From positions 735,617 through 799,616 of the forward strand of contig OX638346.1 of NCBI GenBank assembly GCA_951813515.1: 64,000 nucleotides of DNA, written 5' to 3'. The DNA is from an uncultured Pseudomonadales bacterium. GTDB taxonomy: Bacteria > Pseudomonadota > Gammaproteobacteria > Pseudomonadales > Azotimanducaceae. The notes under the pieces were generated by a model. It had not been told where the DNA came from. It did not search any database and saw nothing but the letters and a program-made list of their open reading frames with translations. Numbering within the stretch: the first letter of the stretch is position 1; each line of letters starts with the position of its first letter. Shown here one piece after another: positions 49,276-63,595 of the stretch. The translations under genes and the position numbers were made by a program.

Positions 49276-49348
49276 ATTGGAATGCCGGAATCGAACCGGC
49301 AACGCCCAGTTCCCTAAACCGGTGCTCTACCTATTGAGCTGATTCCAC
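49276..49348 (-). tRNA. tRNA-like gene, anticodon loop TTAGGGA (reads AGG, nominally Pro), atypical
   Basis: Minus strand: GTGGAAT CA GCTC AATAGGTA GAGC A CCGGT TTAGGGA ACTGG GCGTT GCCGG TTCGATT CCGGC ATTCCAA T. This is a canonical 73-nt cloverleaf with G18G19 and the TTCGA T-loop, but it has C8, a G1.A72 mismatch, A34 and no encoded CCA. Confidence 0.5.
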
Positions 49349-54202: not shown

Positions 54203-54661
54203 ATGAAGGTAGCTATTGGCGACGAGGCCCCCGATTTCGTCCTGCCGGCGGCGGGCGGTGAGACCTTTTCGCTCAGTTCCCTGCGCGGCCGAAAGGTGGT
54301 GCTGTTCTTCTATCCCATGGACGAGTCGCCCGGCTGTACGATGCAGGCCTGCGGGTTCCGCGACCACTACGACGAGTTCGTCGCATCGGGCGCGGAGGTG
54401 GTGGCGATCAACAGCGGTCGGGTCGCATCACATGAACGCTTCGCCGATCATCATTCTCTGCCCTTCCCCGTTCTGAGCGACCCCGGCAACAGGGTTCGCC
54501 GCCGGTACGGCGCATTCACCGGGCCGATCCCCGGACGGGTCACCTACCTGCTGGACGAGAACGGCGTCGTGCGCGACATGTTCTCGTCGATGTTCCGGCC
54601 GCTGGAACACATTCGCCGCGCCCTGGAGTGGATCGGTTCGGAGCAGAGCCGAGACCAATAG
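54203..54661 (+). CDS. bcp: thioredoxin-dependent thiol peroxidase (Bcp-type peroxiredoxin)
   Basis: GDEAPDFVLPAAGGETFSLSSLRGRKVVLFFYPMDESPGCTMQACGFRD carries the PxxxTxxC motif with Cys. Confidence 0.85.
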   Translation: MKVAIGDEAPDFVLPAAGGETFSLSSLRGRKVVLFFYPMDESPGCTMQACGFRDHYDEFVASGAEVVAINSGRVASHERFADHHSLPFPVLSDPGNRVRRRYGAFTGPIPGRVTYLLDENGVVRDMFSSMFRPLEHIRRALEWIGSEQSRDQ

Positions 54662-60739: not shown

Positions 60740-62008
60740 ATGCCGGAACCAGAACGCACAACTTCGTATCCGGCGGAACCCGGCAACCGGGCTACCGTCC
60801 TGTCCGTGATGCGCGGTATAGCGCTGCCCGTCTACCTGCCATCTTTTTTCTCGGCGATCGCACAGAACGCCATGCAGATCATGCTGCCGCTCTACGCCCT
60901 CGAAATCGGCGGCGGCCCCGCGTTTGCCGCCACGGTTGTGGGACTGCGTGGCGCCGGAACGATGCTGATGGATGTACCCGCCGGCATGCTGGTGACCCGC
61001 ATCGGCGACCGCGGCGTCATGATCCTGGGGCTCGTGACCGCGACGGTAGCAACCTTCCTTGCGGCAGCCGCGACCGAAGTCACCCTGCTGTCCTTCGCCG
61101 CGCTCGGTTTCGGCGCCGGTGCCGGCATCTGGGTGCTCGGCAGGGTCACGTTCATCACAGACACGGTGCGCCTCGAGCAGCGCGGCCGCGTGATTTCCGT
61201 GATGGCGGGCATGCAACGCGCCGGCGCGTTCGTCGGTCCCGTGATTGCGGGTGTCGGCGCCGACTTGATCGGGTATCGCGCCGTTTTCGTTGGCGCGGGC
61301 GTCCTGTGGGCGATTTCCCTCGTGATCGTGATGATCTTCGCGACTAACGCCAGGCCTGCCGAAGGACTCGAGCGTGCCCGCCTCGCACACATCGTGTGGA
61401 CACACAAGCGGACGTTCGCAACGGCGGGAAGCGTCATGGTCGTGCTGATGTTCCTGCGAACCGGCGTTCGGCTGATGATTCCGCTCGTCGGTGCCGAGAT
61501 GGGGTTCTCCGCCGCCGAAATCGGATTGGCATACAGCCTTTCCTCCGCAGTCGACATGGCCATGTTCTATCCCGCGGGCATGATCATTGACCTGGCGGGC
61601 CGCAGGTGGGCATTGGGGCCCGCCATGCTGCTGCTGGGGATCGGCGTCGCCGCCCTTCCCTTCGCCGGCAGCTTCTGGGCCTTCACTGCCGCAGGGCTCT
61701 TGGCCGGGCTCGGCAACGGTTTCGGCACCGGTATCTTCATGACCCTCGGCGGCGACCTGTCGCCCGCGCAGGGACGCGGCGAATTCCTCGGCGTCTGGCG
61801 ATTGGTGGGCGACGCGGGCGCGGCAGTGGGACCTTTCATCATGGGGCCATTGGCGCAATGGACGTCGATGGCCATCGCCTGCACATCCACCGGCGGCATG
61901 GCCCTCGTGGGCATCTGTTTGCTGATAGTCTTCGTGCCCGAAACGCTCCGCCGGCAATCGGCGATCACCTTGGCACGACGCGAAGAACGAAAGGACTCGG
62001 GAAGATGA
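60740..62008 (+). CDS. MFS transporter
   Basis: 422 aa, about 12 TM helices, with MFS loop motifs such as GMLVTRIGDRG and GMIIDLAGRRW. Confidence 0.85.
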   Translation: MPEPERTTSYPAEPGNRATVLSVMRGIALPVYLPSFFSAIAQNAMQIMLPLYALEIGGGPAFAATVVGLRGAGTMLMDVPAGMLVTRIGDRGVMILGLVTATVATFLAAAATEVTLLSFAALGFGAGAGIWVLGRVTFITDTVRLEQRGRVISVMAGMQRAGAFVGPVIAGVGADLIGYRAVFVGAGVLWAISLVIVMIFATNARPAEGLERARLAHIVWTHKRTFATAGSVMVVLMFLRTGVRLMIPLVGAEMGFSAAEIGLAYSLSSAVDMAMFYPAGMIIDLAGRRWALGPAMLLLGIGVAALPFAGSFWAFTAAGLLAGLGNGFGTGIFMTLGGDLSPAQGRGEFLGVWRLVGDAGAAVGPFIMGPLAQWTSMAIACTSTGGMALVGICLLIVFVPETLRRQSAITLARREERKDSGR

Positions 62009-63054
62009 ATGGCAATCCTACGACGATACGAGACGGCCTGGCGTTCGGCCTGAACCGACTTGACCACCGATCGCCCCTGCGATTCGCCGCAGACGCAGCG
62101 CGACTCGAAGGTCTGGGTTGGCGCTACGGTTTCCTCGCTTCGTCACCGCTCCTGGTGCAGGACCCGTACGTGTTGCTCGCGCACGCCTTGCGGGAGACGC
62201 GCTCCATCATCCTTGGCACGCTGATAGAAAACCCCGTGATGCGCCATCCCGCAGTCATCGCCGGATCTGTCTCGACAATCGAAAGGCTGGATCCGGGGCG
62301 CATGATATTGGGGATGGGCGTGGGCGACACTGCGGTCCGCCTCATGGGCCGGCGACCCGCCACCGTGGCGTCATTCGAAGAAGCGATCGTCACCATTCGA
62401 TCGCTCACTGCCGGCGAGGAGTTGGCCGTCGACGCCCCCCGGCCCGCCGTGCTCCGCCATGCCGCGCGTGTGCCCGTCTGGGTAGCCACGCAAGGGCCCA
62501 GGACATTGCGCATGGCGGGCCGCGTGGCGGACGGCGTCTTTATCCGGGTCGGCGTTCACGAAACGAACCTGCGGCAAGCCGTCGCGCATGTTCACGCAGG
62601 CGCCGCGGAGGCCGGTCGAGACCCGAAGGAGATTCGCATCGGCTGCGTCTTCCACACCATCGCCGACGACAATACCGAGCGCGTGGGACGCATTGGTCGC
62701 GCCGCCGCCGCCGGATACTACGAGTACTCGCCGGTGCTGTTCGAAGACATCGGTCTGCCCTGGACCGGCGAAGACGTCGCCATCCTGAAACGGCGCGTCT
62801 GGCCGGACTTCCACCACGCCCAGGATCTCGAAGCCGCCGGCGACGTGGTTTCATTCCTTCCGGATGCCGCTGTCGACGCGTTCGTGCTGCACGGCTCCTT
62901 CGAAGCGATCACGGACCAGATCAAGACCATTCTCGGGTACGGCCTGCCCATAGAAATCATCGTGCCGCACCCGATGCCGACGCCGTTCCCGATTTCGGAA
63001 GGCGGCTATGACTACGCGCGAAGGTTCGCGGAGGAAGTGTTTCCGGCCTTCTGA
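62005..63054 (+). CDS. LLM class F420-dependent oxidoreductase
   Basis: MNGNPTTIRDGLAFGL...ILGTLIENPVMRHPAVIAGSVSTIERLDPGRMILGMGVGD. The ATG overlaps the MFS stop (ATGA). The upstream part of the track ORF from 61606 is a shadow over the MFS gene. Confidence 0.85.
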   Translation: MNGNPTTIRDGLAFGLNRLDHRSPLRFAADAARLEGLGWRYGFLASSPLLVQDPYVLLAHALRETRSIILGTLIENPVMRHPAVIAGSVSTIERLDPGRMILGMGVGDTAVRLMGRRPATVASFEEAIVTIRSLTAGEELAVDAPRPAVLRHAARVPVWVATQGPRTLRMAGRVADGVFIRVGVHETNLRQAVAHVHAGAAEAGRDPKEIRIGCVFHTIADDNTERVGRIGRAAAAGYYEYSPVLFEDIGLPWTGEDVAILKRRVWPDFHHAQDLEAAGDVVSFLPDAAVDAFVLHGSFEAITDQIKTILGYGLPIEIIVPHPMPTPFPISEGGYDYARRFAEEVFPAF

Positions 63055-63130
63055 TGCGGATGCGGCCGAAGCTATCCTCCGGGAACGCTTTCCCTGTATC
63101 CTTCATGGAGAGACTTGCGGGAGGATTCCA

Positions 63131-63595
63131 ATGATCGAAGTCGGCGCCAGTGCCCCGGACTTCACCCTCAGAAGCCATGCGGGCGAGGAGATATCGCTCG
63201 GTCAGTTCAAGGGTGAAAAGTGGGTCGTATTGCACACGTTTCCCCTGGCCTTCACCGGCGGCTGAAGCAGCCAGACCACCAATTTCAACCGTGCGTTGAA
63301 TCAATTTACCAATGCTGGCGCTGCGCTCATGGGCTTGAGCGTGGATTCCGGCCCGGCCCTGAACGCCTGGTCCACTTCCATGGGCGGCATGCGGCACCCG
63401 TTGCTGGCGGACTTCTGGCCCCACGGCGGCGTCGCAAGTTCCCTCGGGATTTTCAATGAGTCGGCGGGCATCGTGAACCGCGCGCTGATCATCATCGATC
63501 CTGAAGGCGTCGTGCGACATACGGAACTCCACCAGGGCACGCTGCCTGACCCTGCGGCGGCGGTGGCTAAACTGGCGGAACTACAGGCAGCCTGA
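63131..63595 (+). CDS. AhpE-like 1-Cys peroxiredoxin with in-frame TGA (probable selenocysteine) at codon 45
   Basis: Track ORFs 63008..63265 and 63296..63595 are in the same frame and are separated only by TGA at 63263..63265. The joined product is MIEVGASAPDFTLRSHAGEEISLGQFKGEKWVVLHTFPLAFTGG[U]SSQTTNFNRALNQFTNAGAALMGLSVDSGPALNAWS...LLADFWPHGGVASSLGIFNESAGIVNRALIIIDPEGVV. The PxxxTxxC motif reads P-L-A-F-T-G-G-U. RBS GGGAGGA lies 6 nt before the ATG at 63131. Confidence 0.75.
63281..63306 (+). promoter_or_regulatory. putative bacterial SECIS-like hairpin
   Basis: AAT-TTCAAC-cgugc-GTTGAA-(tca)-ATT: a 6-bp perfect stem plus a 3-bp extension across a 3-nt bulge. The apical loop contains GU 28 nt downstream of the UGA. 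Confidence 0.45.

Follow-up and report, generated by a model that had tools for sequence, protein, structure and literature searches.

The 64,000-nucleotide stretch analysed here as a whole (hereafter the window; positions 735,617 to 799,616 of contig OX638346.1, assembly GCA_951813515.1) comes from an uncultured Pseudomonadales bacterium of the family Azotimanducaceae and carries on its forward strand, at 63131..63595, a gene that automatic annotation misses and that appears from its sequence to be a genuine selenoprotein gene. We estimate at about 0.9 the probability that this segment encodes one 154-residue peroxiredoxin of the AhpE subfamily with a UGA-encoded selenocysteine (Sec) as the peroxidatic residue. 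The gene displays an in-frame TGA conserved among its relatives, Sec/Cys pairing at the catalytic position, purifying selection across the TGA and constraint at the RNA level on a hairpin located just downstream.

An uninterrupted frame apart from one UGA codon

A first-pass annotation of the window had proposed that two short open reading frames (ORFs) lying in one frame and separated by a single stop, TGA at 63263..63265, be joined into a 154-codon product, and our own reading of frame 1 agrees with it. Between 63131 and 63595 this frame holds 154 sense codons followed by a terminal TGA (63593..63595, the presumed true terminator), and its sole internal stop is the TGA at 63263..63265, which is codon 45; the translation runs MIEVGASAPDFTLRSHAGEEISLGQFKGEKWVVLHTFPLAFTGG, stop, SSQTTNFNRAL...AELQAA, stop. 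A Shine-Dalgarno sequence, GGAGG, is found at 63120..63124 (+), 6 nt 5' of the ATG. When Cys is written at codon 45, the Pfam domain AhpC-TSA (PF00578) spans residues 4-130 (E 1.3e-28) and crosses this codon. The motif around the UGA is P38-L-A-F-T42-G-G-U45, and the residues predicted to form the active site by alignment with AhpE are P38, T42, U45 and R117, the positions other than U45 matching the AhpE active site. There are zero cysteines anywhere in the protein, which therefore has no resolving Cys and displays a 1-Cys-type layout with Sec. We annotate 63131..63595 (+) as the probable complete coding sequence of an AhpE-like 1-Sec peroxiredoxin (154 codons and a stop) and 63263..63265 (+) as a UGA probably read as Sec at the peroxidatic position.

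Kinship with AhpE and other peroxiredoxins

The protein had been described as AhpE-like, and the structural database bears this out. The seven best PDB matches are all Mycobacterium tuberculosis AhpE (MtAhpE; Rv2238c, a 1-Cys peroxiredoxin), with 115-118 bits, the structures 1xxu, 1xvw and 4x0x aligning with residues 1-140 (E 3e-33), and the next class, Prx1/Tsa, reaches 62 bits only (E 7e-16). Judged by these alignments the window protein is closer to AhpE than to other peroxiredoxin classes. The two proteins are of similar length, are 42% identical over 154 residues and have in common the segments FPLAFTGxC (FPLAFTGG[U] in the window), LLSDFWPHG and GxFNExxGxxNR as well as the lack of a resolving cysteine. 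Codon 45 aligns with Cys45 of MtAhpE (FPLAFTGG[U] versus FPLAFTGIC), as had been anticipated for the peroxidatic residue, so that this position is occupied by Cys in the mycobacterial enzyme and would be occupied by Sec in the window protein.

None of the NCBIfam models reached its own cut-off for the window protein. The PrxU model (NF040737), which represents the experimentally verified Sec-peroxiredoxin of Eubacterium acidaminophilum, gave 59.5 bits, below its 270-bit cut-off, indicating that the protein is not a PrxU. PrxU also has Sec at the peroxidatic position, yet it belongs to another subfamily (the model is of the Prx1/AhpC type with 233 positions) and comes from an anaerobe.

Conservation of the UGA codon and selection on the reading frame

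Homologues were surveyed by scanning one genome per species, which yielded 80 related loci. The aligned codon is TGA in 37 of them, within the motif FTGG-U-[S/T]xQT, and is never TAA or TAG. These 37 loci belong to metagenome-assembled genomes (MAGs) of Pseudomonadales/Ca. Azotimanducaceae (85-95% identity), to other Gammaproteobacteria, to one MAG labelled Deltaproteobacteria and to many Dehalococcoidia/SAR202/Chloroflexota, and the same TGA is also present in many metagenome contigs. The 43 remaining loci, from more distant Actinomycetes and Anaerolineae (38-48% identity), carry TGC or TGT at the aligned codon, a distribution that constitutes a Sec/Cys pair at the predicted peroxidatic position. 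The 44 N-terminal codons are kept in frame across the 37 TGA loci. The ratio of nonsynonymous to synonymous substitutions (dN/dS, Nei-Gojobori) is 0-0.4 for the part upstream of the TGA and 0.1-0.6 for the part downstream, dS being close to 1; values below 1 on both sides indicate that the two halves are maintained as a single reading frame.

These data bear directly on the possibility that the gene is a pseudogene, or an ordinary Cys-peroxiredoxin gene altered by a sequencing or assembly error, the two ORFs then being dead fragments. A stop codon does split the gene, no sel genes were found nearby, and two relatives look damaged at the conserved Trp31 codon. An identical TGA position in 37 independent genomes and many metagenome contigs, never replaced by TAA or TAG, is difficult to reconcile with decay, as are purifying selection on each side of the TGA, an intact start codon, Shine-Dalgarno sequence and reading frame, and the constrained synonymous sites of the hairpin codons described below. 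Homologues are thus not generally pseudogenised, the TGA being kept in 37 of the 37 close species, and we consider that the comparative sequences effectively refute decay or error, to which we attach next to no probability.

In the two relatives in question the conserved Trp31 codon is replaced by a stop, TAG in L015 (10088-10090) and TGA in L087 (642-644); they may represent decaying copies or assembly errors. L087 also carries TGT (Cys) in place of TGA at the Sec codon and, if real, could record a Sec-to-Cys switch. One database protein, P0015 (62% identity), was considered as a close Cys orthologue and rejected: although the Sec codon is TGT on its contig, the conserved Trp31 codon is TGA, so that P0015 cannot count as a clean, functional Cys counterpart.

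Annotation of the gene in public databases

It had been predicted that standard gene callers would split the gene, and this is what we observed. Gene calls on contigs break the gene into two AhpC-TSA fragments, one of 44-95 and the other of 88-99 amino acids (aa). Among the 120 best matches examined in a search of protein collections, approximately 110 are 85-106 aa long and cover only the part downstream of the TGA, with start points that vary (MKQF.., MNFNRAL.., MGLSVD..).

Taken literally, such calls would describe two separate small genes, one for a 44-residue peptide and one for a redoxin-like protein of 88-99 residues, the hairpin then serving regulation or re-initiation. This arrangement matches what gene callers report. 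However, a single AhpC-TSA domain covers both parts, the alignment with AhpE is continuous across the junction, the downstream part is deprived of the catalytic residue, and the variation of the fragment start between genomes (MKQF.., MNFN.., MGLS..) means that there is no conserved start codon. We consider two genes highly improbable and one Sec-containing peroxiredoxin the better description.

Two entries, P0001 and P0002, appear to be full-length and have Trp at position 45. They could be taken to indicate that the UGA is decoded as something other than Sec, either as Trp or Gly by a reassigned code, or as Cys or Trp by near-cognate read-through stimulated by the hairpin, and no sel genes were found in the window or the flanks searched. 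The contigs of P0002 (loci L088-L091 concern the Trp entries) nevertheless have TGA at the codon, and translation with table 11 does not yield the entry; the Trp in such entries probably results from an alternative code applied by the gene caller to short contigs. Furthermore, TGA is the normal terminator of the gene just upstream (63052..63054) and of the peroxiredoxin gene itself (63593..63595), which shows that this codon is not globally reassigned. An enzyme with Trp or Gly as its peroxidatic residue would be inactive, which is at odds with the purifying selection seen over the whole protein, and both Gammaproteobacteria and Dehalococcoidia are known to use Sec. Decoding by an amino acid other than Sec is accordingly graded as very unlikely.

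More than 100 sequence clusters of this gene are stored publicly either as fragments of 85-106 aa or with Trp at the catalytic position. As a result of this mis-annotation, these marine and host-associated bacteria are credited with too small an antioxidant repertoire and too little selenium dependence. A family model of its own would mend the annotation of the gene, and it is for annotation that the find has its main value.

A conserved hairpin downstream of the UGA

Bacterial Sec insertion is directed by a hairpin of the coding region, the bacterial Sec insertion sequence (bSECIS). A SECIS-like hairpin had been placed at 63281..63306 in the first-pass annotation. The hairpin is real, with a core at 63284..63300 (+), UUCAAC-CGUGC-GUUGAA, and the wider limits contribute no more than three weak A-U pairs across a bulge. 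The core overlaps codons F52-N57 and consists of a 6-bp stem (63284-63289/63295-63300), present in the minimum free energy (MFE) structure, closed by the apical loop CGUGC (63290..63294, +) with G-U at loop positions 2-3. It begins 18 nt past the UGA, and 24 nt separate 63265 from the start of the loop at 63290; the G at the second loop position, G63291, lies 28 nt from U63263, precisely where a GU had been noted. When the 60 nt of 63263..63322 are folded, both the MFE and the centroid structure (-13.0 kcal/mol) combine this core stem with a possible lower stem, the 5' arm of which would be AGC.AGCCAG at 63266..63274 (+) and the 3' arm CUGGCGCU at 63315..63322 (+). This lower stem is weakly supported and lineage-specific, the lower stems of other lineages being different.

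The hairpin was compared with the published bSECIS rules (PMC13188914, Fig. 2). Its 5-nt loop and 6-bp stem fall within the 3-9 nt and 4-16 bp given for the loop and the upper stem, the loop sequence C-G-U-G-C has a G within the first two positions followed by U, as the rule of a G usually followed by G or U describes, and the UGA-to-loop spacing of 24 nt lies within the 16-37 nt of the consensus. Conservation of structure is found in the form of synonymous-site constraint and of replacement hairpins, both detailed below. Like the fdhF/fdnG-type SECIS of Escherichia coli, the window hairpin is a coding-region stem-loop just past the UGA with a small apical loop carrying G then U. Unlike the bSECIS consensus, its upper stem is short and A-U rich and its lower stem varies between lineages.

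The significance of the hairpin comes from comparison with relatives and not from the energy of a single sequence. In a set of 38 sequences covering two phyla (Gammaproteobacteria and Chloroflexota), the 17 nt TTCAACCGTGCGTTGAA are nucleotide-identical in 30. Within the hairpin codons F52-L56, CGT is used in 28/32 sequences, GCG in 31/32 and TTG in 27/27, while at other places the same alignment shows free variation of Arg, Ala and Leu codons (synonymous pair-difference 0.45-0.78). The mean synonymous pair-difference of F52-L56, 0.07, is the lowest of 57 evaluable five-codon windows (median 0.44), the next independent minimum being 0.24; the synonymous constraint is therefore strongest in the gene at this very place. 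In the 8 sequences with other nucleotides at this place, a hairpin forms again at an unchanged distance. The replacement is GUCGUUC-GGUC-GAGCGAC in L017, L019 and L020, CAUC-GUGC-GAUG in L018, UUCCUUCC-GUGC-GGAGGGGA in L036 and L038, and GCCGGG-CAA-CCCGGC in L033, which has the only loop without G; the loop of a low-GC relative is CGGGC. Taken together, these comparisons support the assignment of the window hairpin as a SECIS-type element. Its unusually well conserved core could serve as a search handle.

At gathering thresholds Rfam matched only a tRNA in the window; we know of no general bacterial SECIS model in this database, and the Rfam result is for that reason uninformative on the hairpin.

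Points that weigh against selenocysteine insertion

Several results weigh against the interpretation of the UGA as a Sec codon served by this hairpin. The first concern the machinery. A tblastn search with E. coli SelA, SelB and SelD gave no match in the 64-kb window or in the roughly 700 kb that flank the 37 loci, and ARAGORN found no tRNA-Sec in the window or in these flanks (approximately 20 kb for each locus); this absence says little, because only about 0.76 Mb were searched.

Others concern the energy of the hairpin. The core alone is weak (-4.2 kcal/mol), and the bSECIS threshold of an MFE of -7.5 kcal/mol or lower is reached only if the lower stem is counted (-13.0 kcal/mol, z -1.44). 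Single-sequence folds were not significant when compared to shuffled sequences, with z -0.5 for 68 nt, -1.44 for 60 nt and -1.86 for another stretch. Moreover, the corresponding stretch of Cys homologues folds into hairpins of comparable energy (mean -6.7 versus -7.0 kcal/mol), and hairpin energy, which we tried as a discriminator, failed to separate Sec from Cys genes. Many Cys-AhpE genes of Micromonospora and Actinoplanes (among L042-L080) carry a hairpin, GAGGU..ACCUC, at +16..+47 after the Cys codon. These actinomycete hairpins, which could reflect either chance in GC-rich coding sequence or a relic, weaken the mere presence of a hairpin as an argument.

Covariation analysis likewise gave little. 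RNAalifold detected no consensus structure over all 38 sequences and, on the in-register subset, only 5 invariant pairs and no covariation. In a codon-anchored alignment 90.5% of the cells are paired, yet one pair only displays a two-sided change. Methods working on fixed columns cannot score the divergent hairpins, because these lie 3-4 nt out of step with the codons; classical covariation was not demonstrated, the main stem being invariant and the variant hairpins out of register. With a single two-sided pair, the structural support consists of the synonymous-site constraint and of the out-of-register replacement hairpins.

We also looked for a second selenoprotein in the window and the related loci, which would have been independent evidence of Sec decoding. 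A comparison of translations reading through TGA revealed none, its output being swamped by off-frame alignments of syntenic GC-rich relatives; the one site to stand out was that of the peroxiredoxin, with 34/34 aligned U residues. A scan based on the G+C content of third codon positions (GC3) gave only artefacts at convergent gene ends and missed the presumed true site too. Motif scans for the Sec motifs of SelW, Trx, AhpD, GPx and SelD in the window and the loci returned nothing credible. The literature lends indirect support to Sec use in these lineages: SelA and SelB co-occur in most MAGs of sponge symbionts, which belong to various phyla (PMC5649159), and Dehalococcoidia MAGs rank with the bacteria known to be richest in selenoproteins (PMC13326102).

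A possible scheme of decoding and catalysis

According to the scheme that we propose, the hairpin at 63284..63300 (loop CGUGC) would act as the bacterial SECIS for the UGA at 63263..63265. SelB charged with GTP and Sec-tRNA(Sec) would bind the apical loop and bring Sec to the ribosome stalled at the UGA, and the second UGA, at 63593 and without such a hairpin, would terminate translation. In the resulting protein T42 and R117 of the PxxxTxxU pocket would activate the selenolate of U45, which would attack the hydroperoxide and be converted to a selenenic acid; an external thiol system would then reduce this acid, glutathione/glutaredoxin or thioredoxin being candidates.

The reductants of AhpE are mycoredoxin-1 and mycothiol. 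Their synthesis is not known from Gammaproteobacteria, and the reductant of the window protein would accordingly have to differ from that of AhpE. Recycling by mycoredoxin-1/mycothiol seems unlikely, because the host is a Gram-negative gammaproteobacterium; a TonB-dependent receptor is encoded within the window.

Relation to known selenocysteine-containing peroxiredoxins

Marine bacteria have been known to possess Sec-peroxiredoxins of this general kind since 2005-2008. Those with Sec in a TxxU motif rank second in abundance among the selenoprotein families of the Sargasso Sea, where they number 43 genes (PMC1088965), and count 253 genes in the Global Ocean Sampling (GOS) data (PMC2398784); the Sec-peroxiredoxin of E. 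acidaminophilum was verified experimentally (cited in PMC13188914, where the family is reviewed). The window protein has in common with the 'Prx' family of the Sargasso Sea and GOS surveys the PF00578 domain, the Sec in TxxU, the coding-region hairpin after the UGA and the marine bacterial origin. Several peroxiredoxin subtypes are mixed in the published family, which includes many Bcp/PrxQ-like members and is not described as AhpE-type. The GOS supplementary dataset (PMC2398784) does contain AhpE-like Sec sequences, for example JCVI_READ_1095368000334 (..FAFTGGUKNQV..LLSDYWPHG..). Those compared here are 38-42% identical to the window protein, the clade of which is distinguished from these GOS examples by the motif FTGGU[S/T]xQT..FNRAL.

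The window gene is best regarded as a new member of a well-known kind of selenoprotein, possibly from a distinct AhpE-type clade. A broader proposal, which we put forward tentatively and hold to be somewhat doubtful, is that it belongs to an undescribed and coherent '1-Sec' AhpE-type clade, defined by FTGGU[S/T]xQT..FNRAL and a near-invariant SECIS core, that has spread horizontally between marine Gammaproteobacteria and Chloroflexota (SAR202/Dehalococcoidia), including sponge-associated lineages, and that uses a reductant other than mycoredoxin/mycothiol.

The 17-nt SECIS core is identical between genes of Gammaproteobacteria and of Dehalococcoidia/SAR202 (L001-L035) that are only 55-68% identical in protein, a pattern compatible with the gene and its SECIS having moved together by horizontal transfer. 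The nearest Cys homologues, 38-48% identical to the window protein, are found in Anaerolineae (other Chloroflexota) and Actinomycetes.

The find leaves the knowledge of selenoprotein biology unchanged. It adds a cysteine-free AhpE-type scaffold to the peroxiredoxins that use Sec, and it would offer a clean natural system in which to compare Sec and Cys chemistry in a 1-Cys peroxiredoxin.

Genomic neighbourhood

The surroundings of the gene correspond to what the first-pass annotation had described. A Cys-type AhpC/TSA protein is encoded in the window at 54203..54661. A major facilitator superfamily (MFS) transporter gene at 60740..62008 lies directly upstream of a luciferase-like monooxygenase gene at 62005..63054, which ends in TGA at 63052..63054. 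These two genes overlap by the sequence ATGA at 62005-62008, which holds the stop codon of the MFS gene and the start codon of the monooxygenase gene and suggests their translational coupling.

In the window, the peroxiredoxin gene starts 77 nt after the end of the monooxygenase gene (intergenic segment 63055-63130). In L085/L086:906-9636, a restriction-modification island and a Cas3-HD gene lie between the monooxygenase and peroxiredoxin genes, with TIR and HicAB genes downstream. In L083:273-8975 and in L084, a complete type I-C CRISPR-Cas locus and HicA are found immediately upstream of the peroxiredoxin gene. The spot between the two genes looks like a hotspot of defence-island insertion.

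The only tRNA of the window, at 49276-49348 (-), is a tRNA-Pro with anticodon AGG. It scores a modest 45.5 bits against Rfam and seems to have a G1-A72 mismatch. Apart from tRNA-Arg(ACG), bacterial tRNAs seldom have A34, and this tRNA-Pro(AGG) may be an unusual or degenerate one.

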